This document shows positions 1 to 31,356 of a DNA stretch of 64,000 bases, in pieces. The position numbers were made by a program, and so were the translations under genes. The notes under the pieces were generated by a model. The model made no database searches. It was not told the origin of the DNA and saw only the letters and a list, made by a program, of their open reading frames with translations. Source of the stretch: Lysobacterales bacterium (GTDB lineage Bacteria > Pseudomonadota > Gammaproteobacteria > Xanthomonadales > SZUA-38); NCBI GenBank assembly GCA_033722075.1, contig JAWVZU010000002.1, positions 3,266 to 67,265 of the forward strand, given 5' to 3'. Within the stretch, counting starts at the first letter, position 1; the number at the start of each line of letters is the position of its first letter.

Positions 1-420
1 ATCCTGGCTGTACTGGTGGTGGTCGGCCTGCTCTTCGGACTGGTCGGCGGATCGCTTTACCGCAGCATGGATGCGGTCAAGATCCGTCGGGCCGGCAAGG
101 AGGTCGTGAATGCGCTGCGTCACACGCGGGCGCAGGCGATCGTCAAGCGCGAGGAACAGTTCCTGGAGGTGGACATCGAGGAGCGCAGCTACCGGCCGGC
201 CGACGGGGAGCCGAAGCAACTTCCCGATGATGTCGACGTCACCCTGCGCACGGCCTCGATGGACATCCTCAATGAAAAGCAGGGCCGGATCCGCTTCTAC
301 CCGGATGGCTCCTCCACCGGGGGTGAGATCACGCTCATGTCCGGTTCGCACGTGTGGCGAGTCCGGGTGGCATGGCTGACCGGCGAGATCACCCTGGAAG
401 CCAGTAAGGGGGCCTCCTGA
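1..420 (+). CDS. gspH: Type II secretion minor pseudopilin GspH (5' end outside window)
   Basis: Frame 1 is open from the window edge. It shows a hydrophobic pseudopilin helix (ILAVLVVVGLLFGLVGG), then a GspH-like body ending RFYPDGSSTGGEITL. The stop overlaps the gspI start (TGATG). It sits first in an H-I-J-K series. Confidence 0.75.
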   Translation: MLAVLVVVGLLFGLVGGSLYRSMDAVKIRRAGKEVVNALRHTRAQAIVKREEQFLEVDIEERSYRPADGEPKQLPDDVDVTLRTASMDILNEKQGRIRFYPDGSSTGGEITLMSGSHVWRVRVAWLTGEITLEASKGAS

Positions 421-851
421 TGCGGTTCGGTCCGGCTGGTCAACGCGGGTTTACGCTGCTGGAGATCCTGGCGGCGTTCGTGATCTTCGCCCTGGTCTTT
501 GCCACTACGCTGCAGGTGCTGTCCGGGTCCCTGCGCAACACCCGGCAGTCGGCCGAATACACGGAAGCCGCGCTCCGGGCCCAGAGCGTCATGGACAGCG
601 TGGGTGTCGAACCGCTGCTGGAGGTCGGCACCTATGAGGGTGAGCTGGAGAACGGCTACCGCTGGGAAATGGAGATCAGTCAATATGACATTCAGTCCGA
701 GCCGACGCCGGACGGGCGGACCTATGCCAACCTGTTCGAGGTGCCGATCGATCTCTACGAGGTCCAGCTGACCCTGACCTGGGGCGATCCGGACCGCCCG
801 CGCGGCGCGGTCTTCCGTACCCTTCGTTCCGTGACGGCCGAACCCCAATGA
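420..851 (+). CDS. gspI: Type II secretion minor pseudopilin GspI
   Basis: Prepilin-peptidase motif GQRG/FTLLEILAAFVIFAL at the N-terminus. The 143-aa size is typical of GspI. ATGA overlap with the next gene. Confidence 0.85.
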   Translation: MRFGPAGQRGFTLLEILAAFVIFALVFATTLQVLSGSLRNTRQSAEYTEAALRAQSVMDSVGVEPLLEVGTYEGELENGYRWEMEISQYDIQSEPTPDGRTYANLFEVPIDLYEVQLTLTWGDPDRPRGAVFRTLRSVTAEPQ

Positions 852-1540
852 CCCGGCAGAGCGGATTCACGCTGGTTGAGATGCTCCTGGCGATGACCCT
901 GGTGGCCCTCATCCTGGGCATGGCCTACAGTGGCCTGCGGACCAGTGCCAAGGCGGTAGAGCGCGGCGATGACCTGCTGGATCGCTCCAACCGGCTGCGC
1001 ATCGTGCATCAGTTCGTGCGTGCCCAGCTGCGCTCGGTCATGCCGCTGCAGATCCCTCCGGAGAACGATTTCGACGAGGAGATCCTCACCTACTTCGAAG
1101 GCGACGAATCCTCGCTGCATTTTGCCGGGCCCATGCCGGGTTATCTGAGCAACGGCGGGCCCCATGAGCAGCGCCTCTACTTCGACCGGGGCCCGGACGG
1201 AAACCTGGAACTCCTGTTCGATCATGCTCCCTTGCTGCGCGACGAGGAGTGGCCGGAGCAGGAAGAGCGGGAACCGGTGGTCCTGCTGAGCGGAATCCGC
1301 GAAGGACATTTCGAGTACCTGGCCCTCGACGAGGAAGGCGAGCCGGATGAGTGGCAGGCCGAGTGGGAGGAACCGACCACCATTCCCCTGATGGTCCGGA
1401 TTGCCGTGGAGATGGAGCCGTTCACGCGTCAGACCTGGCCCGTGCTCGAGGTGCGGCCGGTACTCGATGCGGCGACCGGCGGTCGCCAGTTGCAGCGCCC
1501 GTTCGTACTGCCGGGATCGCGCCGGGAGGGATCCGGGTGA
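848..1540 (+). CDS. gspJ: Type II secretion minor pseudopilin GspJ
   Basis: Prepilin motif RQSG/FTLVEMLLAMTLVAL. 230 aa. Located between gspI and gspK. Confidence 0.85.
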   Translation: MTRQSGFTLVEMLLAMTLVALILGMAYSGLRTSAKAVERGDDLLDRSNRLRIVHQFVRAQLRSVMPLQIPPENDFDEEILTYFEGDESSLHFAGPMPGYLSNGGPHEQRLYFDRGPDGNLELLFDHAPLLRDEEWPEQEEREPVVLLSGIREGHFEYLALDEEGEPDEWQAEWEEPTTIPLMVRIAVEMEPFTRQTWPVLEVRPVLDAATGGRQLQRPFVLPGSRREGSG

Positions 1541-2409
1541 CCGGGACACGTCAAAAAGGCGTCGCGCTGGTGCTGGTGCTGTGGATGAGCGTTCTCCTGG
1601 CCGTGGTGATCGGGAGTTTTGCCATTGCGGCCCGCACCGAGACATTGCAGGCGCGCCAGCTTTTCGACGGACTCAAGGCGGAGTACGCCGCGCAGGCCGG
1701 ACTGCACCGGGCGGTCTACGAGTTGCGTCGCCCGAACATGGAGGACCGCTGGTTCACCGACGGGCGCGCCTACGAGATCCAGTATGACCAGGCCGAGGTG
1801 GAGATCCGGATCACCGACGAGTCCGGGAAGATCGACATCAACGTGGCCGACGAGGAGTTGCTCGGACGCCTGTTCGATTCAATCGACGTGTCCGAGGATG
1901 CGCGTGACCTGCTGGTCGACGCCATTCTCGATTGGCGCGACCCGGATGACCTGATCCGGATCAACGGGGCCGAAGACGACGACTACCGGTCCGCCGGTTA
2001 CCCTTACGGTGCCAAGGATGCGCCCTTCGATACGATCGGCGAGGTGCAGCAGGTCATGGGGATGGATTACGAGCTCTATCTGGCCATCGAGCCGGCAATC
2101 ACCGTACACTCCGGCCGGCCGGTGCCGGAGCCGGCCTTTGCACCCGTCGAGGTCCTGCGCACGCTGGAGGGCATGGACGAGGCCAGCGCCCTGGATTTCG
2201 TGGCGCAACGGGAACAGAACACGGAATTGGGTGTCCCATTGCCCGTGCTTCCGGATGGTACGACGCCGCTGGCCCGCGGCGGAGGGTACACCTTTACCGT
2301 CGTCAGCACGGCGACCATGCCCAGTGGCGTGACCAATGCCATCGAGGTGACCGTCCGGATGGGTGGCGTCCCCGGTGGGCAGCCATTTCGAATCCTGCGC
2401 TGGAACTGA
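1537..2409 (+). CDS. gspK: Type II secretion minor pseudopilin GspK
   Basis: GTG at 1537 overlaps the gspJ stop (GTGA). The N-terminus QKGVALVLVLWMSVLLAVV lacks Glu+5, as in GspK. GspK-like motifs ITDESGKIDINVA and ILDWRDPDD are present. The ORF-track start at 1351 lies inside gspJ and was not used. Confidence 0.8.
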   Translation: MTGTRQKGVALVLVLWMSVLLAVVIGSFAIAARTETLQARQLFDGLKAEYAAQAGLHRAVYELRRPNMEDRWFTDGRAYEIQYDQAEVEIRITDESGKIDINVADEELLGRLFDSIDVSEDARDLLVDAILDWRDPDDLIRINGAEDDDYRSAGYPYGAKDAPFDTIGEVQQVMGMDYELYLAIEPAITVHSGRPVPEPAFAPVEVLRTLEGMDEASALDFVAQREQNTELGVPLPVLPDGTTPLARGGGYTFTVVSTATMPSGVTNAIEVTVRMGGVPGGQPFRILRWN

Positions 2410-3521
2410 TGATGTCCAATACGTTGACCCAAGCCCTGGAACGCGCTCGCCGACACCGCATGGTGACCGGCTCGGTCGCCTTTCTGCGCTGGTGGCGTGA
2501 CGAGCTGATCGACGGGTTGCCCGAGCTTTGGCGAGCCCGTCTGCGCACGGAAACGGAGCGGTTGTTCGTCGCCTCGGACGGCGACGAGGTCACCGTTCGG
2601 GATAACGCCGGGGAAATCCTCGGGACTTTCCGCGAGTCCGAGGAGCCGGCGATCAGTGCCCAGGTGGTGCAGGGGATTCTGGGCAATCTCGAGGAGGATC
2701 ATCCGGAGATCTACTTTTTGATGGACGAGGCCCGGGTGCTGCAGCGCACCCTGACCCTGCCGGCCGCCGCGGAAGACAACCTCCGCCAGGTCATGCACTA
2801 CGAGATGGATCGGTACACGCCCTTCAAGGCCGATCAGGTCCATTTCGACTGTGAACTGGTGGAGCGTCTTGGGGGTGGTACCCGCCTGCGGGTCAACCTG
2901 CTTGTCGCGCGGCGTGCCGAGGTGGAGGCGGCGGTGCGGTTCTGTCGTGAGCGGAGTCTGGAGCTGCACGGCATCGACGTGATCGGGGCCGACGGCGAGC
3001 GACGCGGGGTGAACCTGCTGCCGCCTGAACTGCGAGCCCACAAGGATCGCCGCCAGCTCAAGTGGAACCTCGCCCTGGCCGGGCTGTTCGTGATCCTGCT
3101 CTAGGGGGTGCTGTGGCAATCGGTCGCTTCCCGCGAGGAGGCGCTGGAGGCCTATCGGATGAAGCTGGACCGGTTGCGGGGCGATGCGGCCGAGGTGGTG
3201 GAACTGCGGGAGGAGCTCGAGGAGTCGGCCGAGGCGGCGCGCTTTCTCGGCGACCAGAAGCGTCGGCGCACGGCGGTGACGGGTCTGCTCGCCGAGCTGA
3301 CCCGGCAGCTGCCGGAGAACACCTGGTTGCAGCGGCTGCAGGTGAACGAGGAAACGGTGCAGATCTCCGGGCAGACCCCGGAGACGGCCCAGCTGGTGGC
3401 TTTGCTCGAAAAGTCGGAGTGTCTGAGGTCGCCGAATATCAAAGGTGCAGTGACGCCCGACCCGCAAAGCGGCAAGGAGCGGTTCACCATCGAGGCGATG
3501 CTTGTCGGAGGCCAGTGCTGA
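2409..3521 (+). pseudogene. gspL: GspL/XpsL-like T2SS inner-membrane platform gene interrupted by a single in-frame TAG (3102-3104)
   Basis: ORFs 2409-3104 and 3108-3521 share one frame, separated only by TAG plus one codon. The context is ...KWNLALAGLFVILL*GVLWQSVASREE..., so the stop lies in the only hydrophobic segment. The combined length of about 370 codons and the position between gspK and gspM fit one GspL. This could be a real nonsense mutation, a sequence error or read-through. Confidence 0.7.
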
Positions 3522-4126
3522 TGGTCGATATCCTGCCCTCCAAGGAACGCCAGCGCCCGCTGGCCTATCTGCTGCTGCTGGTCGCGCTGATCGTCTTCTA
3601 TTACGTGTTCTTCCACCGCTTCATCCTCAGCCATCTGGCGCTGTCCGAGCAGATCGAGCAACTCACCCAGTCCGAGCTTCGTTACCGGGCGGCCATCGCC
3701 CAGAAGCCGGAGCTGCAGGAGCGGCTGGCGGAGCTGCGCCGGGCCCAGACCGAAAGCGATTATTTCCTGGAGCAGGAGAACATCAACCTCGCGTCGTCCG
3801 AACTGACCACCCGGCTCAAGGAGGTCATCTCCCTGCACGCGGAAAACACCGACGAATGCCAGGTGCTGAGCCAGCAGAACATGCGCAACAATACCGACGA
3901 GGAGTTCCAGCGGGTCAGCATCAAGGTCCGGATGCGCTGTGAGATCGCCGATCTGAGCCGGGTCCTGTTCAACCTGGAGGACGGCACGCCCTATCTCTTC
4001 GTCGACAACCTGACCGTATTTCGCCAGGTGACCCGGCGGCGGCGCAACCGCGAGCTGGTGCAGGAGAAGATGCTCGATGTGCGCTTCGACCTGTCCGGTT
4101 ACATCCGCTCGGAGCCGCAGGCATGA
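3521..4126 (+). CDS. gspM: GspM-like T2SS inner-membrane protein
   Basis: ATG 3521 overlaps the gspL stop (TGATG). One N-terminal TM helix (LAYLLLLVALIVFYYVFF) is followed by a domain of about 160 aa. Assigned by architecture and position, not by a strong motif. The 354-aa ORF-track extension was rejected. Confidence 0.65.
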   Translation: MVDILPSKERQRPLAYLLLLVALIVFYYVFFHRFILSHLALSEQIEQLTQSELRYRAAIAQKPELQERLAELRRAQTESDYFLEQENINLASSELTTRLKEVISLHAENTDECQVLSQQNMRNNTDEEFQRVSIKVRMRCEIADLSRVLFNLEDGTPYLFVDNLTVFRQVTRRRRNRELVQEKMLDVRFDLSGYIRSEPQA

Positions 4127-4854
4127 AGCTCTCCCGACTGGTCGGATTGATCCTTGCCGGCGGATGCGCTCTGCTGGTGCTCGTTGCTTTGCTGCTGGGC
4201 GCCGGCGTGGGAACCGGCATCGAGGCCGACGGGGATCCCTCCGAATTCGAGCGTCCGGTTGCCGACGTGGACCAGAGCGGGGGATTCCGGCTGGAGGAAT
4301 TCGACGAGCGCTACGCGGTCATTGCCGAGGCACCGCTGTTCAACGAGGATCGGCTGCCCAGCAGGGACGAACCGGTGGTCGAGGAGTCCGAGGCACCGGG
4401 TTTCGGCGAGCCCGAGCCGGTTCCGCTGAACGTCGTCGTCAAGGGCATCATCATCACCCCGGAGGTGAAGCTTGCGATCGTCACCGACGAACGCAGCAAG
4501 GAAACCCAACGCTTGAAAGAAGGGATGCCGCTGGAAGGCGAGATGGGCGGCTGGACCCTGGCCGAGATCGAACCCAGAAAACTGATTTTCGACAGTGCGT
4601 CGCAGGGACGGGCCGAGGTGGACCTGCAAGTCCATACGAAGGCGCTTGCCGGCGGCGCTGCGCCTGCGCGCACCAACGCGCGGACGGCGAACGAGGACGC
4701 GTCACAGGAACCTGCGGCTGAGAATCAGCAGGGCGCCCAGCCCATGGATGCGGAGGCGCGTGCCGAGGAAATTCGGCGGCGCGTCGCGGAACGGCGGGCT
4801 CAGCTGCGAGCCGAGGCGGAACGTCGGCGACAGGAACAGGCCGACGAGCAGTAG
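4123..4854 (+). CDS. GspC/XpsN-like T2SS protein: N-terminal TM, PilP/HR-like beta domain, charged C-terminal tail
   Basis: ATGA overlap with gspM. TM helix LVGLILAGGCALLVLVALLLGAG. The segment VVKGIIITPEVKLAIVTDERSKETQRLKEGMPLEG..GWTLAEIEPRKLIF resembles the secretin-binding HR/PilP-type domain. The tail is Arg/Glu-rich (EEIRRRVAERRAQLRAEAERRRQEQ). It lies directly upstream of the secretin, as in xps-type clusters. Confidence 0.55.
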   Translation: MKLSRLVGLILAGGCALLVLVALLLGAGVGTGIEADGDPSEFERPVADVDQSGGFRLEEFDERYAVIAEAPLFNEDRLPSRDEPVVEESEAPGFGEPEPVPLNVVVKGIIITPEVKLAIVTDERSKETQRLKEGMPLEGEMGGWTLAEIEPRKLIFDSASQGRAEVDLQVHTKALAGGAAPARTNARTANEDASQEPAAENQQGAQPMDAEARAEEIRRRVAERRAQLRAEAERRRQEQADEQ

Positions 4855-4910
4855 CGTCGCCGGCAGAACAACGAAGAATACGAACCAATAATGAATCAAG
4901 GAGTGCCGTT

Positions 4911-7097
4911 TTGAATTGCAGAACCTCAAAGCTCGCAGCGCTGGCGCTGTTGCTTACGGCCTGCGGGAGCCTACCGGTGAGCGACGACGGCCCCGATCAA
5001 GCCACGCGGTCCGCTGCCGGGCCAACGGATCCGGCGGCCGCGGAGGTCGGGGCGGCTCAGCCCGAGAGCGACCCGGCGCCGACGACGGCCAGTCCCGAAC
5101 TTTACCCCGGCAGCGGTCGATTCATCGACTCGGATGCGGCCCAGCGGCCTGCGCTGGATGCGGTGGGAGAGGGGGAGATCATCTTCAATTTCGAAGGTGA
5201 GGCGCTCCAGGCCGTGGTCAAGGCGATCCTCGGCGACCTGTTGCAGGAGAACTACGTGATTTCGCCCGGGATCCAGGGCAACGTCACCTTCTCCACGGCC
5301 AAGCCGGTTCCCATGGACCAGGTGCTGCCTATCCTCGAAATGCTCCTGTCCTGGAACAATGCCGCCCTGGTCTATCGTGACGGCCGCTACCATGTCATGC
5401 CGATCCCGCGGGCCGTGCAGGGCCAGCTGCGCCCGGTCATGGGGCCGCTGGCCGATCAGCGTGGCTACGAGGTTCGCGCCTTTCCGCTGGACTTCATTGC
5501 GCCTGCCGAGATGGAAAAGCTGCTGCGGCCCTATGCCCGGGAGAATGCCTTCGTCAGCGTGGACAACGCGCGAGGCCTGCTGATCCTGGCCGGCACCCGG
5601 GACGAGCTCGAGAACTACCGTCAGACCATCGAGATCTTCGACGTCGATTGGCTGGAGGGTATGTCCGTCGGGGTCTATCCGCTGGAGCGGGTGGAGGCCG
5701 ACACGGTGGTCGGCGAGCTGGAGGCGGTCTTCGGTGAGGGTTCCGGTACGCCCCTGGCGGGCATGTTCCGCTTCATGGCCATCGAGCGGCTGAATGCAAT
5801 CATGGTGATCACGCCGCAGCCGGCCTACCTGGACAAGGCGGTCGAGTGGGTCAAGCGCCTCGATCGGGGCGGCAGCGAGGCAGGAACACGCCTCTATGTT
5901 TATGCCGTGCGCAACGTCAAGGCGACGGACCTGGCCGACACGCTTTCGGACATCTTCAGCGACTCCGGGCGATCGTCCAGCCGTGAGCAACGCCGCGGCT
6001 CGCTGCAGCTGGCTCCCGGCCTGGAAGCCGGCGAGATTTCCTCGATCAACGATCCGCGGCGCCGGCAGCAGCAGGAACAGACCGAGACGGCGGAGCGGCG
6101 ACCGGCGACCCGCGAAAGCGGGGGCGGCGGCATCGCTCTGGTCGACGGGGAAGAGGTACGCATCACCGCCGTGGAAGAATCCAACTCACTGCTGATCCGG
6201 GCCACGCCGGGGCAATACGATGCGGTACTCGGGGCCATCAAGCGCCTGGACATCGTGCCCCTGCAGGTACTGGTGGAGGTCCAGGTGCTCGAGGTCACGC
6301 TGAACGAAAACCTGAGATACGGCGTACAGTGGTTCTTCGAGAGTGCACTCAATGACTTCAGCTTTCCGGGCAGCGGATCCGGCAGCGGCGGCAAGGGCGT
6401 GTTCGACAGCGGCGGCTCGATCAGCGGTGATCGCTATGCCACCGTTTCCGGGGGCGGCGGGCTGAACTATGCGATCCAGGGTGGCGACGCCGCAGCGATC
6501 GTTTCCGCGCTGGAATCGGTGACGGATGTGCGGACGATCTCCGCGCCTTCCATGATGGTGTTGAACAACCGCGAAGCGAACATCAATGTCGGCACCCAGA
6601 TCCCGGTCAATTCCCCGATCTTCAATCTGGGCACCGGGACTGATGTCGGGCGCACCCAGGTGCAGTTCCGGGATACCGGCGTCACGCTCAACGTGGTCCC
6701 CCGGGTCAATCCCGGTGGGATGGTGTTCATGGAAGTGCAGCAGGAAGTCAGTGCGCCGATCGGGTCGGCCGATGCTCAGGGCAACGTGTCGCTTCGCCAG
6801 CGGCGGATCGACACGGAAGTGGCCGTCCAGAGTGACGAAACGGTGGTCCTCGGCGGCCTGATCCAGGCCGACTTCGAAGAAGACCGGAGCGGGCTGCCCT
6901 GGTTATCCCGGATGCCGTTGGTCGGCGGTCTGTTCGGAAACCAGGGACGAGACATCACGCGCACCGAGCTGATTGTGCTGATCACCCCGAAGGTGGTCGC
7001 CAGCATCGAGGAAGCTCGCGCCGTCAGCCGCGAATATCGTGAGCGGATGCGCACGCTGAAGCCCCTGGACTCGGAAAAAGTGGAAATCAATAACTAG
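4911..7097 (+). CDS. gspD: Type II secretion secretin GspD with a lipoprotein signal peptide
   Basis: TTG start preceded by AAGGAG. Lipobox LLLTAC/GS. A Pro/Ala-rich linker precedes the N0-like domain (IIFNFEGEALQAVVKAILGDLL). The C-terminal secretin core reads ISAPSMMVLNNREANINVG...VVLGGLI...IPWLSRMPLVGGLFG...TELIVLITPKVV. Confidence 0.95.
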   Translation: MNCRTSKLAALALLLTACGSLPVSDDGPDQATRSAAGPTDPAAAEVGAAQPESDPAPTTASPELYPGSGRFIDSDAAQRPALDAVGEGEIIFNFEGEALQAVVKAILGDLLQENYVISPGIQGNVTFSTAKPVPMDQVLPILEMLLSWNNAALVYRDGRYHVMPIPRAVQGQLRPVMGPLADQRGYEVRAFPLDFIAPAEMEKLLRPYARENAFVSVDNARGLLILAGTRDELENYRQTIEIFDVDWLEGMSVGVYPLERVEADTVVGELEAVFGEGSGTPLAGMFRFMAIERLNAIMVITPQPAYLDKAVEWVKRLDRGGSEAGTRLYVYAVRNVKATDLADTLSDIFSDSGRSSSREQRRGSLQLAPGLEAGEISSINDPRRRQQQEQTETAERRPATRESGGGGIALVDGEEVRITAVEESNSLLIRATPGQYDAVLGAIKRLDIVPLQVLVEVQVLEVTLNENLRYGVQWFFESALNDFSFPGSGSGSGGKGVFDSGGSISGDRYATVSGGGGLNYAIQGGDAAAIVSALESVTDVRTISAPSMMVLNNREANINVGTQIPVNSPIFNLGTGTDVGRTQVQFRDTGVTLNVVPRVNPGGMVFMEVQQEVSAPIGSADAQGNVSLRQRRIDTEVAVQSDETVVLGGLIQADFEEDRSGLPWLSRMPLVGGLFGNQGRDITRTELIVLITPKVVASIEEARAVSREYRERMRTLKPLDSEKVEINN

Positions 7098-7112
7098 AAC
7101 GGAGCGTACGGA

Positions 7113-7526
7113 ATGATGAGAGTGGTGTTGATTGCGCTGGCCGCGGCCATGCTGGCGGCGTGTGCCGGTCTGGGTCGACCGGTCAGCCTCGAGGAGCGGG
7201 CCCAGGCGCGCTGGGACGCGGTGATCAGCGGCGACTGGGAGCGTGCCTATGCGTACCTGTCCCCGGGAGCCAGGACCGCCATGTCGGAGAGCGCGTTCCG
7301 GGAGCTGATGACCAACCGCACGATCAACTGGACCGGCGCCGAGGTGGTGGAAATCGGAATGTGCGATACGGCGGTCGGCAGCTGCGACGTGATTGTCAAC
7401 GTCGGTTACCGGGTTTCCCGCGGCGTGCCGGGCCTGCGCAAGCCCATAGAACTCACCAAAGGAGTGACCGAAAGCTGGATCGAGGTAGACGGGGCTTGGT
7501 ATTTCGTTCCCGATCGTCTACGATAA
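7113..7526 (+). CDS. Small lipoprotein of unknown function (137 aa)
   Basis: Signal peptide with lipobox AMLAAC/AG. It starts 15 nt after gspD with no terminator between them. I recognise no catalytic motif. Confidence 0.7.
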   Translation: MMRVVLIALAAAMLAACAGLGRPVSLEERAQARWDAVISGDWERAYAYLSPGARTAMSESAFRELMTNRTINWTGAEVVEIGMCDTAVGSCDVIVNVGYRVSRGVPGLRKPIELTKGVTESWIEVDGAWYFVPDRLR

Positions 7527-7599
7527 CGGCACAAAAAGAGATCCAAGGGGGTCGGCGGAAGCCCTTTCCCAACGGCTTTTTCGCCAATCGTGTAAATCA

Positions 7600-7628
7600 T
7601 TGCGTTGTGGATTTCGTTTTTGTACCAT
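7600..7628 (+). promoter_or_regulatory. Candidate sigma70 promoter for the 7732 gene (-35 TTGCGT, 17-nt spacer, -10 TACCAT)
   Basis: It lies in a 205-nt intergenic stretch (7527-7731) that is AT-richer than its surroundings. The hexamers were spotted by eye only. A strong RBS (AGGAG) sits 7 nt before ATG 7732. Confidence 0.25.
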
Positions 7629-7731
7629 GTGGTCGCTCTTTTGTAGCGGAAAGCACTGGCTTAGGCGGGAAATAAGCGACTAAACGTGATTTCTGCCCGA
7701 GTGGCCCTGTGAATGTGTTAGGAGTGTTGTA

Positions 7732-9309
7732 ATGAAGAGAAAAACCTTAACGACTGCTGTGCTCGCTGGCATCGGTGGTGTGGCGGGTATCGCCAACATC
7801 TCCGGCGCCGTGAACCTGAACCCGGATGGTCTGGGCCAGGTTCTTATCTATCCTTTCTATACGGTTAATGGTGGCAACGACACGCTTGTGTCGGTTGTGA
7901 ACACCACTGCTGAAGTCAAGGCCGTCAAGGTCCGCTTCCTCGAGAGCAAGAACTCTCGCGAAGTGCTCGACTTCAACTTGTATCTGTCGCCGTTTGACGT
8001 CTGGGTCGGTGCCGCAACTTCTACCGGTGATACCGGTGCTGCGGTTCTGGTCGTGCCCGATGGCGAAGACAGCTGCACGGTTCCGGCCATCACCGGTCCG
8101 GTTCCGTTCACCAACCTGCTGCTGACCGAGCGGAATGCAGCCGGCTCCGCTTTCATCGACAACAGCATCGAGCGTACCCGTGAGGGCTACATCGAGATGA
8201 TCGAGATGGGCGTGGTCGAGGAAACCGCTGACGCCGTCAAGACGGGTCTGGAAGCGGCTGCTATCCACACCCCGCGCGGTACTGTTCCGGCTAACTGTGG
8301 CGCTCTTGTTGCCGCATGGTCCACCGGCGGTATCTGGCTGCAGGACGAAGACACCGACGTACTGGCGCCGACCGGCGGCCTGTTCGGTGGTGGTTCCGTG
8401 ATCAACGTATTCGGCGGCTACCAGGCCTCCTATACGGCTGACGCGATCGAGGGTTTCTACAACCCGATCAATGGTGACGCTTCCGTAACCGCTGCGGTTC
8501 GGAACACCCTTCACAGCCAGCCGGGTGACACCAACCCGACGCTGCTGCAGACGGACACCACCAACCTGACCGGCGATCCGTCGGTTGACCGTAGCTTCGT
8601 GTTCGATCGTGACCGCGTCGTGACCTCTGACTGGTCGCGTGCGGGCGTTCCGGATGCAGTCAGCGCGACCTTCATGCGCGACTTCATCTACAACGAGTAC
8701 GCAATCGAAACGGTTCTGTTGGGTGCGACCGAGTGGGTTGCCACCTTCCCGACCAAGCGTTTCTACGTTGACCCGGCAATTGCTGGCACCACGGCTATCA
8801 ACCCCTTCACCAACCAGTTTGGTGTGGTTGACGGCATCGGCGCCTGCGAATTCGTCGCTCTGGACTTCTTCGATCGCGAAGAAGACACCACCTTCGTTGT
8901 TGACGAGCCTGTGTTCTCGCCGGCTCCGGTCACCCTGCCGAACGTTCCGTTCCTGTGCTTCGAAGCCCAGGTCATTTCGTTCGGTGAGCCGGGTACCGGC
9001 TTCTTCGGCACCTCACCGTCGACTGTTCTGGGTTCCCCGAACTCGCAGAACATCCCGGTCGAGACCGAAGGCTTCGAGTCCGGTTGGGCTCAGATCGGCT
9101 TCGCGCCGGCTGACGTCGCACAAGGTCTCGGTGTGCGTCACACCATGACCTCGGACGACGGTGACGTCTACAACGGTCTGCCGGTTACCGGTTTCTCGGT
9201 TCAGGTGGTCCGTAATGGCACCATCACCGACGACGCTGGCAACAACGTGCTGTCCAACTACGCTGGCCTGTTCAATCACCGGTCCAGCCGGGACATCATC
9301 GGCAGCTAA
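7732..9309 (+). CDS. Secreted protein of unknown function (525 aa), probably highly expressed
   Basis: Sec signal peptide MKRKTLTTAVLAGIGGVAGIANISGA. Conserved-looking N-terminal block LNPDGLGQVLIYPFYTVNGGNDTLVSVVNTT..VKVRFLESKNSREVLDFNLYLSPFDVW. Codon choice differs from neighbouring genes (many GGT/GCT/GTT/CGT/ACC/TTC codons). It has its own leader and a perfect terminator. Confidence 0.85.
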   Translation: MKRKTLTTAVLAGIGGVAGIANISGAVNLNPDGLGQVLIYPFYTVNGGNDTLVSVVNTTAEVKAVKVRFLESKNSREVLDFNLYLSPFDVWVGAATSTGDTGAAVLVVPDGEDSCTVPAITGPVPFTNLLLTERNAAGSAFIDNSIERTREGYIEMIEMGVVEETADAVKTGLEAAAIHTPRGTVPANCGALVAAWSTGGIWLQDEDTDVLAPTGGLFGGGSVINVFGGYQASYTADAIEGFYNPINGDASVTAAVRNTLHSQPGDTNPTLLQTDTTNLTGDPSVDRSFVFDRDRVVTSDWSRAGVPDAVSATFMRDFIYNEYAIETVLLGATEWVATFPTKRFYVDPAIAGTTAINPFTNQFGVVDGIGACEFVALDFFDREEDTTFVVDEPVFSPAPVTLPNVPFLCFEAQVISFGEPGTGFFGTSPSTVLGSPNSQNIPVETEGFESGWAQIGFAPADVAQGLGVRHTMTSDDGDVYNGLPVTGFSVQVVRNGTITDDAGNNVLSNYAGLFNHRSSRDIIGS

Positions 9310-9336
9310 CAGCCGAGTCAACAGCTCTAGCTGTGG

Positions 9337-9366
9337 AAAGGGGCGCTCTGCGCCCCTTTTCTTATT
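9337..9366 (+). terminator. Rho-independent terminator of the 7732-9309 gene
   Basis: Perfect 10-bp stem AAAGGGGCGC / GCGCCCCTTT with loop TCT, followed by the T-rich tail TCTTATT. It begins 28 nt after the stop codon. Confidence 0.8.
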
Positions 9367-9514
9367 GGGGAAGCGGAACCTTTTCCCTATGATGGAATCG
9401 AAGCTGGCGCGGGTTGGTGGCAGGAATCTTCCGGGAGCCGACCCTAAATTAATTCTTAACACGTGAACTGCCAGCCTGATTTAGAATTGTTGCTCTCCAG
9501 ATTCGGAGTGGACG

Positions 9515-10546
9515 ATGAAAAAAGAACTACAGATCATGATTGCCGCCGCCGCGTTCACCGCGTCGGCAGGCGCCCAAAACAACCTGACCCTGAGCACGGA
9601 TGAAACCGTCACCACCGATGATTGCACAGTGATTCTCCGGTCGGGCGCCGCCGTGGAATTCACTACCGATGGTCTTACGGCCGAGGTGGAAGGTAATCCG
9701 GACGGATGCCTGGCAACAGGCCTGTCCGGTGGCGGTGCTGTGGCCCTTGACGCGGCGCCGTTTGACGAGGTCGAAGAAAATACGACCGTGACCCTGACCT
9801 GGGACGTTCCGGCGAACCACGACTGTACCCTGACCCGGAACGGCGCCACGTTTTTCAGCGATTCCCAGATCGACGCGAATACCTCCACGACCGATACGGT
9901 CAGTGGTGACGTGACTTACCGGATGAACTGCACCAACAGCAAGACTGACCCGCAGTTTGCGCCCGGAACGGAGTCCGCCTTTGCGACCGCGCTGGTCACC
10001 GTCTTGAACAGCGGCGGTGGCGGCGGCGGTGGTGTCGGCGAGTTCTGTGATGCGCAGCCCACCGGCCTCTCCCGGGTTGATCCGGTCGAGTTCCTCTCCA
10101 ACCGCCTCATCGAGGGCAGTTCCTCGACCTACGAGGGTATCTGGGGCCCCTGGGGCGATAGCTCGAGCACCATCTATGTCGAGATGAGCAACGGGCAATA
10201 TGCCTCGCTTCCGTTTGTCATCAGTAATACGCGATCGGACGATTTCGCGATCATGGTCTGGGACCAGATTTCCGAAAGCCCCGAGCAGGTGCGGGTCAGC
10301 GTCTCCACCTGTATCGGTGGTCCGCTCCAGGAAACCTCAGTTCCCCAATCCGGGAATAACTCCTGTTACTTCCAGGGCAGTGGGGTGTCCGGTGGCTTCA
10401 ACATGAAGGCGATCGAATCGACCAGCGGTTGCATCCTGCAAGCCGGTGTTCAGTACTTCTTCAATATCGCATTCGTGGACGCGAACGGTAACGCGGGCTG
10501 CACGCTTCCTGGAGGAAACTGCGCGTGGAACGTCAGCGAGAACTGA
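9515..10546 (+). CDS. Secreted Cys-rich two-domain protein of unknown function (343 aa)
   Basis: Signal peptide MKKELQIMIAAAAFTASAGA/QN with RBS GGAGTGG. The N-terminal beta-rich region and the Cys-rich C-terminal domain are joined by a G7 linker (SGGGGGGGVGE). Confidence 0.75.
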   Translation: MKKELQIMIAAAAFTASAGAQNNLTLSTDETVTTDDCTVILRSGAAVEFTTDGLTAEVEGNPDGCLATGLSGGGAVALDAAPFDEVEENTTVTLTWDVPANHDCTLTRNGATFFSDSQIDANTSTTDTVSGDVTYRMNCTNSKTDPQFAPGTESAFATALVTVLNSGGGGGGGVGEFCDAQPTGLSRVDPVEFLSNRLIEGSSSTYEGIWGPWGDSSSTIYVEMSNGQYASLPFVISNTRSDDFAIMVWDQISESPEQVRVSVSTCIGGPLQETSVPQSGNNSCYFQGSGVSGGFNMKAIESTSGCILQAGVQYFFNIAFVDANGNAGCTLPGGNCAWNVSEN

Positions 10547-12006
10547 TCGGCGCTGCGGCACGGCTCGCCGCATCCGCCATCACCCTGGGGTGCCTAGCAG
10601 CACCCCTTTTTGCGAGCGACCTCGGTCCCGGCGTGCTGGCCCGCCTGGGCCAGGCCGAAGTGACCCAGGCCGACGTCAACGCAGCCCTGCTCGATGTGCC
10701 GGCAGACAAGCGCGACGGCGTCATGAACAGCCCCGACCGGGTCGGCAACCTGCTCCAGACGATCCTCCTGCGACGCGCAATCGTGGCCGATGCGGACCGC
10801 TTCCTGTCCCGATCGGAGATGCGCAAGGCACGGGAGAGCGCACAGGAGGAAGCGCTGGCAACCCTCGCCCTGGAGATGATTCCGGTCGTCAACGACGAGC
10901 GCGCAATCGAACAACGGGCACGCCAGCTCTACGAACGAGAGGCGGCCGCCGCTGCCCGAACCGTTGTAAGCTTCGACCTGATTACCGTTCAGGCAGATGC
11001 GCATGGCTGGGACGGTGCGGAGCGAGTGGCTGCAGAGCAATACGCTGTGCTCCAGGCCGGTGACACGGTCGAAGAGAGCGAAGGAATTACCGTCCGACGC
11101 TTTCAGGACGTGGATCGAACCCAGATTGCCGACGAGTTTCGCGAGCGGATTAGCGACATGCAACCAGGCACTGTCAGCAAACCTTATCCGATGGTCGTAG
11201 GCTATCAGATCCTCGTCTACCGCGGTGCTGAAACACGCCCGCCACCTTCTTTCGAGGATACCCGCTCAACCTGGATGGCGCGTGCGCGGGACGACCTGGC
11301 CGCGGCAGGCCGGCGGGAATTGGCTCAACTGCACGACGAGGCTGGACTGGCAGACCTGGCGAAGGAAGCGGGCCTGGACAATGAGCCGACCGGTGCAGCA
11401 TACCTGCGCCAGGCCGAAGAGGAGGCCCTCCTGGCGGAACTCAAGAACGCGTATTTCGAAGAAGAACTGCAGGGGGACTATTCCGCGCTGGTGCGCGAAC
11501 GCTATGTCACGAGCCGGGCGCAGCATCGCACCCAGCCGCAGGCTGATATCGCGCTGGTGCGGGTTCGCGGTATGCCGGCCGTTGATCAAGGTGAGCTCCG
11601 GGAAAAGCTGGACTCGTACGTCCGCGAGCAGGGGCTCGGCGGATTCGATGAGCGGGTCAAGGCCCTCACCGGCGTGCCCGCAGTCATGGCGTCCTACCAG
11701 CGCCAGGTCCCCTTCAAGATTCTCCGGGATTCCACGGAATTCGCGCTGTACGAGATGCTCGAGCGGGATTGGGTCGCCCATGTTTCGGAGACCGATGGCA
11801 TCGTCAGTTTCGTCGCGATGGCAAACTACGTGCCGTCGCGCCAGAAGGAGTTCGCGGAGGTCGAGGAAGACCTCATGGCCTCCGTTAGCAAGGAGCTCCG
11901 AGAAGCCGCCTGGCGACGCTTTACCGATCCTTACTACAAGCTGGAGCTGGAAGCCGATCCGGAGGCAATTGCCGCCCTGAGAGTGCCCGGCATGGAAGGC
12001 GGCTAA
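10525..12006 (+). CDS. SurA/PpiD-like periplasmic chaperone with two degenerate parvulin-like domains
   Basis: GTG start overlaps the end of the previous gene by 22 nt. Signal peptide ...ITLGCLAAPLFA/SD. SurA-N-like helix bundle (GQAEVTQADVNAALLDVPADKRD...LLQTILLRRAIVADA). Parvulin-like ending PGTVSKPYPMVVGYQILVY. A second, weaker repeat lies in the C-terminal half. The start codon is uncertain. Confidence 0.7.
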   Translation: MERQRELIGAAARLAASAITLGCLAAPLFASDLGPGVLARLGQAEVTQADVNAALLDVPADKRDGVMNSPDRVGNLLQTILLRRAIVADADRFLSRSEMRKARESAQEEALATLALEMIPVVNDERAIEQRARQLYEREAAAAARTVVSFDLITVQADAHGWDGAERVAAEQYAVLQAGDTVEESEGITVRRFQDVDRTQIADEFRERISDMQPGTVSKPYPMVVGYQILVYRGAETRPPPSFEDTRSTWMARARDDLAAAGRRELAQLHDEAGLADLAKEAGLDNEPTGAAYLRQAEEEALLAELKNAYFEEELQGDYSALVRERYVTSRAQHRTQPQADIALVRVRGMPAVDQGELREKLDSYVREQGLGGFDERVKALTGVPAVMASYQRQVPFKILRDSTEFALYEMLERDWVAHVSETDGIVSFVAMANYVPSRQKEFAEVEEDLMASVSKELREAAWRRFTDPYYKLELEADPEAIAALRVPGMEGG

Positions 12007-12021
12007 ACGTCGGCGACCGTC

Positions 12022-12804
12022 ATGTTGCTGAGCCGGACCGAGGTTGCCGTATTCCGCCTTCTGCTCTGGCGGTACGCCCGCGAACGTTATCTCCAGAACT
12101 GGGCAGGCCCACTGTGGGTCATCCTGGTACCGCTGGCCCAGCTCGCAATCTACGCCTTCGTGTTCGTCGAGATCTTCAAGGCACGGGTCCCGGAGGCGGA
12201 CACGGTGGGTTTCGTGCCCTATCTGGCCGTTGCCTTCTGGCCGTGGACAGCGTTTGCCGATGCGGTGATGCGGGCGACGCCTTCGGTGGTCGAGAACCGG
12301 GACCTGATCGGCAAGGTGGCGCTCCCGGCGGAGGCGCTCCCTGCGGCCAGTGCTTCGGCAACATTTCTCCTGACCCTGGCCGGCTACGTGGCGGTGCTGA
12401 TCGTCCTAGCCGCGACGGGTACGCCTATTGGTCTGGTGGGGCTGCCCCTGATGCTGACCATGGTGCTTTGCACCTACTTTCTGGCCTTGGGCCTCTCCCT
12501 TCTCTTCAGCGCCCTGCAGGTCTACGCTCGCGACCTCAATCATGCGCTCGGTCCGCTGTTCATGCTGTGGTTCTTTACCACCCCGATTCTCTATTCCATT
12601 GACCTGATTCCCGAGCGTCTGCGTGGTCTCGCTCAGCTGAATCCGTTCTATTACATCGTCAGCCGCATTCGCGATGCGCTGCTTTTCGATGCTCCCCGTT
12701 TCCGCTTGGCAGATATCGCGTTCCTCGTCGCGAGTGCGCTTTTCATGCTGCTCTGCGTTGCCGTTTTTCGCCGTCTCTCGCGCCGCTTCGAAGACTACCT
12801 ATGA
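12022..12804 (+). CDS. wzm: ABC-2 type polysaccharide/O-antigen export permease
   Basis: 260 aa with about 6 TM segments. The ABC-2 N-terminus is typical (LLWRYARERYLQNWAGPLWVILVPLAQLAIYAFVF). ATGA overlap with the ATPase gene. Confidence 0.85.
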   Translation: MLLSRTEVAVFRLLLWRYARERYLQNWAGPLWVILVPLAQLAIYAFVFVEIFKARVPEADTVGFVPYLAVAFWPWTAFADAVMRATPSVVENRDLIGKVALPAEALPAASASATFLLTLAGYVAVLIVLAATGTPIGLVGLPLMLTMVLCTYFLALGLSLLFSALQVYARDLNHALGPLFMLWFFTTPILYSIDLIPERLRGLAQLNPFYYIVSRIRDALLFDAPRFRLADIAFLVASALFMLLCVAVFRRLSRRFEDYL

Positions 12805-13859
12805 CCGATTGCCTGATCCGTCTGCGAGGTGTCAGCAAGGCGTTTCCCGTTTCCGGAAGCCGCCTTGCGCGACGTGCCAAATCCTGGCGGACGGTTCTTC
12901 ACGGCATCGACCTGGAGCTGCACAAGGGCGAGTCACTCGCGGTGCTCGGGGAAAACGGTGCCGGGAAATCGACCCTGCTCAAGATTATTGCCGGGGTCGC
13001 CCGTGCGACCGCCGGGGAAGTCGCGGTTCAGGGGACCTTCGGCGCCCTGATCGAACTGGGGGCCGGCTTCCATCCGGAGCAGACCGGTCTGGAGAACCTG
13101 AAGGCGGGGGCGACCCTGATGGGTGTGCCGAGGGACGAAATCGGGGAGATTACGGAGCAGGCGATGGCCTTCTCCGGGCTGCGGGACCACGCCGACAAAC
13201 CCCTGAAGCATTACTCGTCGGGGATGGTCGTGCGCCTCGGCTTTGCGATGATTGCCTCCATTCGTCCGGATCTCCTGATCAGCGACGAAGTTCTGGCGGT
13301 CGGTGACGAATCCTTTCAGAAGAAGTGCATTGGCTGGCTCGAGTCCTACCTTGCCGGGGGTGGTACCTTGCTGCTGGTCTCGCACAACCTCTATCACGTA
13401 CAGAAACTCTGCGAACGCGCGGTCTGGTTACATGAGGGTACGATCCGATCGGCCGGGGACACCTTCGAAGTCGTCCAGGAATACCTGGCGTTTCACGAGG
13501 CCCGGCTCGGTCGGGCTTCAACCGCGGCAAACGACGCCGGTTTACCTGGGCTGGCTTTTGCGCCTGAAGGACGGACATCCTACAGCCAGGGAGAAACGGT
13601 CGCCCTGACGCTCGATGGTTCGCCGGAAGCCCCCCTGACATGCGCCCTGCGGCGGCTGAGCGGCGATCTGATCTGGGAACGATCCCTGCCTGTAGAGGCC
13701 GCCGAGTGCGAACTCCCGACCGCCGATCTGTTGCCCGGGCGCTATGTCGTCGAGATCAGCCGGCCGGGCGCAGCGGGCGGGGTGACCCGCCTGTTCCGGA
13801 TCACCGGAGCAAGCCGCGAGTTCGGATCCCTGCGCCTCCCCCACAGCTGGGTCCAGTGA
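12801..13859 (+). CDS. wzt: Polysaccharide export ABC ATPase with C-terminal extension (Wzt-like)
   Basis: Walker [13 protein letters not shown], signature YSSGMVVRLGFA and Walker B LLISDEVLAVGDE. About 110 extra C-terminal residues look like a beta-sandwich (GETVALTLDG...GRYVVEISRP). Confidence 0.9.
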   Translation: MTDCLIRLRGVSKAFPVSGSRLARRAKSWRTVLHGIDLELHKGESLAVLGENGAGKSTLLKIIAGVARATAGEVAVQGTFGALIELGAGFHPEQTGLENLKAGATLMGVPRDEIGEITEQAMAFSGLRDHADKPLKHYSSGMVVRLGFAMIASIRPDLLISDEVLAVGDESFQKKCIGWLESYLAGGGTLLLVSHNLYHVQKLCERAVWLHEGTIRSAGDTFEVVQEYLAFHEARLGRASTAANDAGLPGLAFAPEGRTSYSQGETVALTLDGSPEAPLTCALRRLSGDLIWERSLPVEAAECELPTADLLPGRYVVEISRPGAAGGVTRLFRITGASREFGSLRLPHSWVQ

Positions 13860-14683
13860 TGACCCTCGTTGCGATGCCCGTGTACAACGCCGCTGACGCG
13901 CTTGGCCGTTGCCTCCGCTCCCTGGAACAGCACTTGCCTCCCGAACAAGCCATCGTGATCTGCGATGACGCATCGACCGATGTACGGGTCGGCGAATTGC
14001 TGGATGGGTTCTGTGACCGATCGACACGAACCTTGCTGCGAAATCCCACCAACCGGGGATTCGTCGCGACGGCCAATCGCCTGCTGGATCAGGGGCGGGA
14101 CGATGTTGTCCTGCTCAACTCTGACACGCGGGTCACGCCGAACTGGCTTGCGGCACTGGAGCGCTGCGCCGCATCGGATCCGATGATCGGCACGATCACG
14201 CCGTTTTCCAATCACGCGGAGATCTGTTCCTTTCCCGACTTCTGCCGGCCAAACCCGGTTCCCGCCGATCCCGATGCGGTCGCCCGCGCGATCGCCCGGA
14301 TCGGTCGCCCGACCTATCCGCGGTTGCCGACGGCAGTGGGATTCTGCATGTGGGTCCGGCGTCGGCTGCTCGATGAGATCGGCGCTTTCGACGAGTCGGC
14401 CTTCGGCCGCGGCTACGGCGAGGAAAACGATTTCTGCATGCGAGCTTCCGCTGCGGGTTATCATCACGTCCTGTGTGACGATGCCTATGTTGTCCACGAG
14501 GGCGGCGCGTCCTTCGCCGAGACCGGCCTGAAACCCGGCCCGGAGACCATGGCGCGACTGCTGGCCAAACACCCGGATTACGAGACTCTGGTGCATCGAT
14601 TCATCGCAACCGATCCGATTGCCGCCCGACGGGCCGAGCTGTTGGCCGGCATGAATGCCTACGAGCGCGGCCAGTTGGCCTGA
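13859..14683 (+). CDS. Family 2 glycosyltransferase
   Basis: ATG 13859 overlaps the wzt stop. GT2 hallmarks are present: MPVYNAADALGRCLRSL, ICDDASTD, LLNSDTRV, GFCMWVRRRLLDEIGAFDE..GYGEENDFCMRA. The ORF-track start at 13640 was rejected. Confidence 0.85.
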   Translation: MTLVAMPVYNAADALGRCLRSLEQHLPPEQAIVICDDASTDVRVGELLDGFCDRSTRTLLRNPTNRGFVATANRLLDQGRDDVVLLNSDTRVTPNWLAALERCAASDPMIGTITPFSNHAEICSFPDFCRPNPVPADPDAVARAIARIGRPTYPRLPTAVGFCMWVRRRLLDEIGAFDESAFGRGYGEENDFCMRASAAGYHHVLCDDAYVVHEGGASFAETGLKPGPETMARLLAKHPDYETLVHRFIATDPIAARRAELLAGMNAYERGQLA

Positions 14684-14690
14684 TCCGGAC

Positions 14691-15581
14691 ATGGAATTCA
14701 CCGGTGAAAGGTTCCTGCCCGAGTGCCAGCGCGAGATCTGGTACGAGCATTTCCATCGCTATGTCTTCGCGCGTCACCTCGCCCGGAACCGCCGTGTCCT
14801 GGATCTGGCCTGCGGGGAGGGCTATGGCGCTTCCCTGTTGTCGGACGTCGCCCGGCAGGTCATAGCGGTCGATCGATCAGGGGAGGCAGTCGTGCATGCC
14901 CGGGGCGAGTACGGGAACGACCGCCTGGTGTTGGTCCAGGGGGACGCGTCAGCGATCCCGCTGGCCGACGCGAGCGTCGATCTGGTCGTATCCTTCGAGA
15001 CCCTGGAGCATCTCGAAGCCCAGACCGAAATGGTCGGTGAATTCGCCCGGGTACTCCGAAAAGACGGCCTGGTGTTGATTTCCAGCCCGGACAAACGCAC
15101 CTATAGTGACGAGCGGGACTATACCAACGAGTTTCACGTCCGGGAGCTGTACCTTGAAGAATTCAAGGCCCTGCTCGCGGAACACTTCCCGGCGGTGCGC
15201 TTGTTCGGCCAGAAGCTGGGCTTCCACTCGGTGATCTGGGATCCCGAATCGGCCCACGGCGGCAAGGTGACCGCCGAGGCCGTCGCCCGGGATGATGCCG
15301 AACCCGGCCCCTGGCAGCCATCACCGATGTACTGGATCGGCGTGTGCGCGGCCGCTCCGGGGGCGCTGGAACGGGCGGGCCTGACGGATCTGGCCCTGTT
15401 TGCCGATACCGAGGAATCGGTCTACGCGCATTACGAGCACGAGATCCGCAAGAACATGGCTGCCGGTGGGATCATCGCCGAGCGCGACCAGCGAATCGCC
15501 GAACTCGAAGCCCGTTTGGCGGATCGGGACCACAATATGCCGGGCTGGCTGCAACGACTTACAAGAAAAATACTGAAATAA
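14691..15581 (+). CDS. Class I SAM-dependent methyltransferase with C-terminal coiled-coil tail
   Basis: Motif I VLDLACGEGYG, then motifs DLVVSFETLEHL and GLVLISSPD. The C-terminal heptad-like segment reads IIAERDQRIAELEARLADRD. Confidence 0.85.
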   Translation: MEFTGERFLPECQREIWYEHFHRYVFARHLARNRRVLDLACGEGYGASLLSDVARQVIAVDRSGEAVVHARGEYGNDRLVLVQGDASAIPLADASVDLVVSFETLEHLEAQTEMVGEFARVLRKDGLVLISSPDKRTYSDERDYTNEFHVRELYLEEFKALLAEHFPAVRLFGQKLGFHSVIWDPESAHGGKVTAEAVARDDAEPGPWQPSPMYWIGVCAAAPGALERAGLTDLALFADTEESVYAHYEHEIRKNMAAGGIIAERDQRIAELEARLADRDHNMPGWLQRLTRKILK

Positions 15582-15585
15582 CGCC

Positions 15586-17388: not shown

Positions 17389-18236
17389 CCGCCCGCACCG
17401 ACGCGGTGGTGGTCAATTTCAATGCCGGTGAATGGTTGGCCCGCTGCGCCTTGTCCCTGCTGAAGGAGCCGGCCGTGGCCGCGCTCACGGTGGTGGACAA
17501 CGGTTCAACGGATGCCAGCATGACCGGCTTGCCGGAAGACCCGCGCGTCGCGGTGATCTCCAATCCTGACAACCGGGGCTACGCCGCAGCGGCCAACCAG
17601 GGCGCCGGGGCGGGAAGCGGCGAGTTCCTTCTTTTTTCGAACCCGGACCTGGAGCTCGTCACCGGCTCCCTGGCTACGCTGCAGGAGCTTCTCGACGCCG
17701 ATCCCGAGGTCGGAATTGCCGGTGTACAGGTCGTGGGTCCCGGCGGTCAGGAGCAACGGGCGTGTCGTCGGCGGTCACCGACGCCGGGTCGTGCCCTGAT
17801 AACCATGCTGGGCCTCGAATGGCTGGGCCTGCCGGGCGTGAACCTCCGATCCAGCATGCCGAGCGTCCCGCAGCCCCTCGACGGGGTCTCCGGGGCGCTG
17901 CTGTTCGTCCGCCGCCGCTGCTTCGAGGCCCTGGGTGGATTTGACGAGGGCTATTTCCTGCATTGCGAGGACCTCGATCTGTTCGAGCGTGCGCGTGCGG
18001 CCGGCTGGAAGATCCTGTTCGTACCGCAGGTGACCGCCCGCCATGCGAAGGGCATCAGCCAGCGGGGGCGGCGGCTTGCCTCCGAGGCTGCCAAGCACCG
18101 CGGCATGGTCCGGTATTATCGGCGCTTTCATGCCGCTTCCTGGCCGCGAGGGCTGCGCTGGTTGTGGCCCGCGCTGGTCGGGGCCCGCTTTGCACTTTTC
18201 AGTCCATTCTGGTGGGCTGCGGACCGGTTGCGATGA
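17385..18236 (+). CDS. Family 2 glycosyltransferase (rhamnosyltransferase-like)
   Basis: GTG 17385 overlaps the upstream stop (GTGA). GT2 motifs are present: VVVNFNAGEWL, VVDNGSTDAS, NRGYAAAANQG, FSNPDLEL, GALLFVRRRCFEALGGFDEGYFLHCEDLDL. Confidence 0.85.
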   Translation: MTARTDAVVVNFNAGEWLARCALSLLKEPAVAALTVVDNGSTDASMTGLPEDPRVAVISNPDNRGYAAAANQGAGAGSGEFLLFSNPDLELVTGSLATLQELLDADPEVGIAGVQVVGPGGQEQRACRRRSPTPGRALITMLGLEWLGLPGVNLRSSMPSVPQPLDGVSGALLFVRRRCFEALGGFDEGYFLHCEDLDLFERARAAGWKILFVPQVTARHAKGISQRGRRLASEAAKHRGMVRYYRRFHAASWPRGLRWLWPALVGARFALFSPFWWAADRLR

Positions 18237-31297: not shown

Positions 31298-31322
31298 TGA
31301 GGGCTCCTGCGGCTGCTCTTCC

Positions 31323-31352: not shown

Positions 31353-31356
31353 GGAC

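Follow-up and report, generated by a model that had tools for sequence, protein, structure and literature searches.

A premature amber codon within the membrane helix of a type II secretion L gene in a Lysobacterales genome assembly

Results and Discussion

A stretch of 64,000 nucleotides from a Lysobacterales bacterium (positions 3,266 to 67,265 of contig JAWVZU010000002.1, assembly GCA_033722075.1; here called the window) carries an Xps-type type II secretion system (T2SS) operon in which one gene is interrupted by an in-frame amber codon. The disrupted gene is the L component of this operon. Its intact counterpart was found on a 71.5-kb scaffold in ENA, XULI22-1_SAMN30677859_METAG-scaffold_190, hereafter the sister scaffold. 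The comparisons described below suggest that the interruption is probably a genuine and very recent nonsense mutation (Tyr232, TAT to TAG, linked to a Met235Leu replacement), that is, a loss-of-function allele of one strain.

The amber codon and the two open reading frames

The L gene opens with the ATG at position 2409, which overlaps the TGA of gspK and is followed by a further ATG at 2412, as read in both the sequence and its translation. The TAG at 3102-3104 is followed by a GGG codon (3105-3107) and a GTG (3108), and the gene ends with the TGA at 3519-3521. Both parts are in a single frame (3108 - 2409 = 699 = 3 x 233), and the translation across the junction reads KWNLALAGLFVILL*GVLWQSVASREE. 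A preliminary description, made from the window sequence, had reported two open reading frames in the same frame, separated by TAG and one GGG codon, and had placed the stop inside the only membrane helix of the gene, with no full helix in either fragment. The sequence and its translation bear out the first of these points, and hydropathy bears out the second. The description was correct for the site, but it missed a second, linked substitution at 3111, which changes ATG to CTG. The elements of the interrupted gene are as follows.

2409..3104, + strand: N-terminal L fragment, 231 codons and TAG; PilM/GspL-like cytoplasmic domain, NLLP motif and helix residues 1-13. Deposited in GenBank as hypothetical protein MDX1568907.1 (R3200_00360; exact match), on a 67,970-bp contig of a metagenome-assembled genome (MAG) labeled 'Xanthomonadales bacterium'.
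3012..3023, + strand: N-L-L-P motif, residues 202-205, nearly invariant in the L family.
3063..3128, + strand: single transmembrane helix region, residues ~219-240, located by hydropathy, the helix of the structure model and the homologue alignment.
3102..3104, + strand: premature amber codon; ancestral TAT (Tyr232); base 3104 is G in the window and T in the sister scaffold.
3108..3521, + strand: C-terminal L fragment, 137 codons from GTG 3108; coiled-coil stretch and PilN-type periplasmic ferredoxin-like domain. Deposited as 'PilN domain-containing protein' MDX1568908.1 (exact match), on the same MAG contig as MDX1568907.1.
3111..3111, + strand: second substitution, linked to the nonsense change and 7 bp downstream of it; Met235 (ATG) becomes Leu (CTG).

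The position of the helix was determined by Kyte-Doolittle hydropathy (sliding window of 19 residues, threshold 1.6). When the tyrosine was restored, values above the threshold were found only in windows starting at residues 217-223, which span approximately residues 217-241. The maxima for the separate fragments were 0.69 (N-terminal) and 0.29 (C-terminal), and therefore neither contains a full helix; the C-terminal fragment, without a membrane helix, also lacks a signal peptide. The uninterrupted transmembrane segment that joins both domains in the intact allele is cut at codon 232 in the window, and the amber codon thus bisects the only membrane helix of the L gene.

An intact allele in a nearly identical scaffold and in all relatives inspected

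The closest database match to the fused translation is P0001, a 369-amino acid protein encoded on the sister scaffold, which is intact and reads ...FVILLYGVMWQS... in this region. The two proteins are 99 % identical over their full length, so the pair of open reading frames is not a chance occurrence. At the nucleotide level, the window and the sister scaffold form an ungapped alignment of 13,521 bp with 8 mismatches, including those at 3104 and 3111 (99.9 % identity). The sister scaffold has TAT (Tyr) in place of the window's TAG and ATG in place of its CTG. The intact TAT/ATG allele is also present in a Logan contig of run SRR21430010, which is identical to the sister scaffold over 5,812 bp; this contig may derive from the same reads as the scaffold, so the two count as less than two independent witnesses. 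The preliminary description had proposed looking up the sense codon in the closest genomes, and the TAT (Tyr) found in the sister scaffold and the Logan contig fits both a miscalled base and a nonsense mutation of recent date.

An alignment of 49 sequences (the restored-Tyr reference and 48 homologues) was then inspected. The column of the stop contains Ala (14 sequences), Val (10), Tyr (9) and Leu (7), and no stop; Tyr is found in the closest homologues and the restored-Tyr reference. The hydrophobic helix is continuous in every aligned sequence (n = 49). In column 235, Met is present in 19 and Leu in 17 of the 49 sequences, and the Met235Leu replacement is conservative. A scan of GTDB species representatives identified at least 598 loci encoding relatives, mostly in Lysobacterales/Xanthomonadales, and the best 80 were inspected. 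No in-frame stop or split was found in the 48 aligned homologues (0/48) or, within the matched stretch, in these 80 best orthologues (0/80).

The L protein joins a PilM-like domain to a complete PilN

The C-terminal fragment matched the Pfam PilN model with 56.7 bits. The match of the N-terminal fragment to PilM_2 was weak (24.6 bits, below the cut-off of 27) and covered profile positions 49-157 of 340. The Pfam PF05134 T2SSL and NCBIfam GspL models did not match the L protein. Across 49 family members, Pfam matches were found to PilN in all 49, to PilM_2 in 21 and to T2SSL in 11. When a profile of the 49 homologues was compared with PDB sequences, the N-terminal part matched PilM (3jc8_Ma, 5.5e-10; 2ych, 2.5e-8) and residues 201-324 matched PilN (3jc8_Na, 1.7e-6), with a weaker match to the cytoplasmic domain of PulL (5tkw, 1.2e-3). 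The PilM-PilN related structures 2ych and 5eou were among the PDB matches.

The AlphaFold2 model of the intact allele (mean predicted local distance difference test score, pLDDT, 86.8) consists of an alpha/beta cytoplasmic domain, a long helix (residues 214-285) that holds the membrane segment, and a ferredoxin-like C-terminal domain. In Foldseek searches, the modeled cytoplasmic domain matched PilM (5eoy_B, 1.6e-8), GspL bound to GspE (4pht_X, 3.9e-8) and GspL-type structures (1yf5, 2.1e-7; 5tkw, 1.4e-6), which places the predicted fold equally with the PilM and the GspL cytoplasmic domains. The C-terminal domain matched 4bhq (PilN), 5uvr (PilO) and 1uv7 (EpsM). Its resemblance in fold to the GspL of the GspE-GspL complex (4pht) suggests that the L protein would bind the GspE ATPase and recruit it to the membrane. 

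The N-L-L-P motif precedes the membrane helix. Residues N202, L204 and P205 are at least 90 % conserved in the L family, L203 is invariant, and most of the 80 loci show the motif. We take it to be the counterpart of the N-terminal motif of PilN that docks onto PilM, and hence to mark the natural PilM/PilN boundary; the stop sits about 30 residues downstream of it. The L family is thus a PilM-like domain fused to a complete PilN within a secretion operon. An evolutionary correspondence of GspL to PilM plus PilN has been described (PMC3815138). The label 'GspL-like' given to the gene in the preliminary description, together with its GspL layout, holds for role and architecture, but the sequence matches the PilN and PilM models and not Pfam T2SSL.

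The retention of the PilN-type N-L-L-P motif right before the membrane helix is a property of the L family across Xanthomonadales. The pLDDT of the model in this region is approximately 90, which suggests possible docking of the motif, in cis, onto the PilM-like domain.

A real mutation or a consensus error

The base call at 3104 probably reflects real DNA. Over 54.4 kb, the window and the sister scaffold differ by 55 substitutions and few indels. The 43 genes compared, a set that omits the thiL hot-spot, the L gene and pilC (where the scaffold has an N gap), contain 36 coding differences, 25 of them synonymous and 11 with an amino acid change. Within the first 13.5 kb, all six differences other than those at 3104 and 3111 are synonymous. 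Since random errors would be mostly non-synonymous, this excess of synonymous differences points to real polymorphism under purifying selection, and it suggests that the differences between the two assemblies are mainly genuine strain variation. Out of 46 genes, the L gene is alone in having an internal stop; the other 44 genes compared have no stop or frameshift in the window. The two changes in the L gene, 7 bp apart, are as expected of one haplotype, and close pairs of differences between the assemblies are found elsewhere (15295/15298/15305, 22382/22385 and 56409/56418).

Further evidence came from run SRR21430010. One of its Logan contigs corresponds to window positions 28614-31422 (100 % over 2,809 bp) and has the window allele at 31143, where the sister scaffold differs. 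The Logan contig with the intact allele, from the same run and corresponding to window positions 1-5112, has the sister-scaffold alleles at 2325, 3104 and 3111. The sample and run identifiers gave no match in the literature. Variants of the window type therefore coexist with the intact-allele haplotype in one run, and at least two closely related haplotypes, or a recombinant, coexist in the sample. The lesion would also be recent: the remainder of the L gene and gspI, gspJ, gspK, gspM, xpsN and gspD are unchanged at the protein level. Apart from the nonsense change, the L gene differs from the sister allele by one further change in 1,113 bp, showing no other decay, and TAT is one substitution away from TAG.

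Several observations weigh against a genuine nonsense mutation. Among deposited assemblies, the GenBank MAG record alone has the stop allele, and exact-pattern scans of genome and metagenome contigs revealed no independent assembly with it. The 231-amino acid product is not on record on any contig of another assembly, and the same is true of the window-specific ThiL and epimerase alleles. The T to G change lengthens a run of G from four to five (TATGGGG to TAGGGGG), and the window and the scaffold also differ by one C in a C-homopolymer of the RNase P RNA; a weakness of the consensus at homopolymers is conceivable.

These observations are the basis of the strongest competing explanation, an assembly or consensus error in which the organism has TAT (and perhaps ATG) and the deposited contig either has wrong base calls or was assembled along a chimeric path, through a strain bubble of low coverage. 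The sister scaffold and the Logan contig agree on both sense codons, and the changes at 3104 and 3111 are the only transversions in the first 13.5 kb, both altering the protein, where the other six differences are transitions. However, transversions and close pairs of substitutions are common elsewhere across the comparison of the two assemblies, and two linked substitutions are improbable as independent random errors. The predominance of synonymous differences (25/36) indicates that the MAG consensus generally reports real variation, and the clean state of the other 44 genes and the independent presence of a window-type allele in SRR21430010 point in the same direction. We consider an error unlikely, if still a serious contender.

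Some mechanisms that could have generated the two changes were considered and rejected. For a templated double mutation from a quasi-palindrome or a nearby repeat, no other copy of the 9-13-mers spanning both bases was found on either strand of the window. The predicted local RNA fold energies of the two alleles are about equal (-29.3 vs -30.6 kcal/mol). Both changes are of the A:T to C:G type, as in a mutT-type mutator, but both assemblies carry the same intact mutT homologue (57013-57399), and the spectrum of differences is mixed.

Other differences between the window and the sister scaffold were recorded. The RNase P RNA (class A, 328 bits; 31360-31713, + strand) lies between rsmI and a sulfotransferase gene. 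Its C run has 6 C in the window and 7 in the scaffold (~31481), which changes a hairpin loop from CCA to CA; this may be real variation, or one of the assemblies may have miscalled the homopolymer. Within thiL (26541-27467), a patch at 26915-27020 has 17 nucleotide differences (9 amino acids) from the scaffold, among them paired +1 and -1 indels (26950/26955) that together leave the reading frame unchanged. The patch resembles either a short tract recombined in from a more distant allele or a mis-assembly at this spot. The scaffold has a gap of 10 N inside pilC (window 59795-59822), where the window is continuous.

Tolerance of the stop, read-through and split genes

The possibility that the arrangement is tolerated, through low-level read-through or suppression of UAG or through two pieces that cooperate as separate PilM and PilN do, is improbable, although it has some precedents. 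In type IV pili, PilM and PilN are separate polypeptides that match the two halves of GspL (PMC3815138, PMC9765573), and a truncated cytoplasmic GspL partly complemented a gspL mutant of Ralstonia (PMC9765573). In-frame restart codons follow the stop (GTG 3108, and ATG 3159 with a GGAGG 9 nt upstream), and the products of near-cognate read-through would probably be functional, as several of the residues one base change away are found in the homologues' column. Against this, the stop is absent from a 99.9 % identical strain and so is not a conserved feature. The C-terminal piece lacks the helix or signal peptide for export, GTG 3108 lacks a properly spaced ribosome-binding site, and the break falls in the middle of the helix.

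TAG is an ordinary terminator in this DNA. For the 46 genes mapped from the sister scaffold to the window, the stops were TGA in 35, TAA in 6 and TAG in 5. The genes ending in TAG are xpsN and gspD, both in the operon of the L gene, secA (whose SEC-C domain lies at its C-terminus), ribE and a gene for an M23 peptidase. ARAGORN found no tRNA gene, and hence no suppressor, in the window. Since TAG ends 5/46 genes, it is not recoded; together with the lack of tRNA in the window and the absence of the stop from all relatives checked, this leads us to reject recoding, and the read-through reading offered in the preliminary description finds no support. The genuine split that had also been considered there was rejected when tested in relatives: with 0/48 homologues and 0/80 loci split, a conserved split gene is excluded, and the break, about 30 residues past the PilM/PilN boundary, also argues against a genuine two-gene arrangement.

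Least probable of all, in our view, is that the amber allele is alive, its pieces or a trace of read-through supporting secretion as a natural split GspL of the PilM/PilN kind with the break in the helix, or, in a milder form, that it is a selected, reversible 'off' allele kept beside the intact one by phage pressure or public-goods cheating.

Predicted consequences of the stop

GspL-type proteins are bitopic, and their interaction with GspM and GspC depends on the single membrane segment and the periplasmic region (PMC3815138). By analogy with GspL, the PilM/GspL-like cytoplasmic domain of the intact L protein would tether the GspE ATPase to the membrane, and the single membrane helix would be followed by a PilN-type periplasmic domain that pairs with GspM. 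A nonsense mutation at 3102-3104 would terminate translation to leave a 231-residue cytoplasmic piece with a hydrophobic tail of 13 residues, half of the helix. A restart at GTG 3108 or ATG 3159 would yield a PilN-type domain kept in the cytoplasm; as it has no helix or signal peptide, it could not reach the periplasm, and the link between cytoplasm and periplasm would be lost. The secretion system would then have little or no activity, with the other operon genes still unaffected.

Strong Rho-dependent polarity on gspM, xpsN and gspD is not predicted, since the stretch left untranslated (3105-3520) is rich in G and poor in C (C/G 0.67) and gspM carries a separate GGAGG. The in-frame ATG 3159, inside the L gene, is likewise preceded by a GGAGG 9 nt upstream (3147-3161), and an internal start there could yield a soluble PilN-domain fragment of 120 residues.

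Reversion of the lesion would be easy. Of the nine possible single-base changes at the TAG, eight give a sense codon (for K, Q, E, S, W and L, and for Tyr twice), and several of these residues occur in the stop column of the homologues.

The operon and its surroundings

The order of the operon in the window is H-I-J-K-L-M-N-D. The E, F and G genes lie upstream in the sister scaffold, where the operon starts with gspE. The genes other than L are listed below.

Ends at 420, + strand: gspH, cut by the start of the window and hence left out of the comparison with the sister scaffold.
420-851, + strand: gspI-like gene, N-methyl pseudopilin; protein identical to that of the sister scaffold.
848-1540, + strand: gspJ, N-methyl pseudopilin; protein identical to that of the sister scaffold.
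1537-2409, + strand: gspK, T2SSK_1st 71 bits; protein identical to that of the sister scaffold.
3521-4126, + strand: gspM (T2SSM_b type), with its GGAGG at 3507-3511; 0 amino acid differences from the sister scaffold.
4123-4854, + strand: xpsN (GspC analogue), ending in TAG; 0 amino acid differences from the sister scaffold.
4911-7097, + strand: secretin gene gspD, ending in TAG; 0 amino acid differences from the sister scaffold.

Stop and start codons of neighbouring genes overlap at 420, 848/851, 1537/1540, 2409, 3521 and 4123/4126. The start of gspD at 4911 follows a spacer of 56 nt, with no overlap with xpsN. The earlier statement that all other T2SS genes are intact and translationally coupled agrees with the proteins shared with the sister scaffold and with these overlaps, but it does not extend to the coupling of gspD. 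A scan of positions 1-8000 for promoters and terminators gave matches at background level only.

In the sister scaffold, a gene for an XrtH-associated protein (PF28117; scaffold 2752-3360, upstream of the window) precedes the secretion operon. After the operon (window 7113-19111) there are genes for hypothetical proteins, an ABC-2 transporter pair, glycosyltransferases, a methyltransferase and an epimerase. It is thus possible that the T2SS belongs to an exosortase or exopolysaccharide-type locus. A type IV pilus cluster, pilB-pilC-pilD (57999-61809, - strand), adjoins coaE and is located downstream of secA-mutT; PilD is likely the prepilin peptidase shared with the T2SS.

Meaning and comparison with known systems

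The feature is an ordinary one, the probable knock-out of a recognisable secretion gene by one base change, or else a miscalled base, with no new arrangement. For annotation, MDX1568907.1 and MDX1568908.1 should be treated as parts of a single disrupted gene of the gspL/xpsL type, and in metabolic or ecological inference the Xps-type secretion system of this strain should be scored as probably non-functional. If the allele is real, it is a small example of the loss of a secretion system at the strain level, with knock-out and intact alleles possibly in the same sample. Such coexistence would be compatible with phage escape or cheating. The finding as a whole matters little beyond annotation.

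The L protein resembles GspL/XpsL (EpsL of Vibrio, PulL, OutL and XpsL) in its position between gspK and gspM, in its bitopic layout (a cytoplasmic domain, one membrane helix, a coiled coil and a periplasmic ferredoxin-like domain), and in the label 'general secretion pathway protein L' given to its homologues by the Joint Genome Institute (JGI). It differs in that the window protein has no match to the GspL-family models, and its gene is interrupted by an amber codon. With PilM and PilN, of the alignment subcomplex of type IV pili, it shares an N-terminal part like PilM, a C-terminal part like PilN and N-L-L-P before the helix. In contrast to that pair, the window family fuses both in one polypeptide, and its PilM-like part is shortened. 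Moreover, PilM and PilN are encoded by separate genes of the pilMNOPQ cluster, divided ahead of the N-terminal motif of PilN, whereas the break in the window lies inside the helix and in a T2SS operon.

The closest parallel to the lesion itself is found in Ralstonia solanacearum, in which spontaneous gspL mutants were selected by phage phiAP1 at a cost in virulence (PMC9765573). Both cases consist of a single small gspL lesion in an otherwise intact operon with an expected loss of secretion; in the window, the lesion is a nonsense codon in an environmental MAG. By analogy with the phage-selected Ralstonia mutants, a selected knock-out is plausible here as well.

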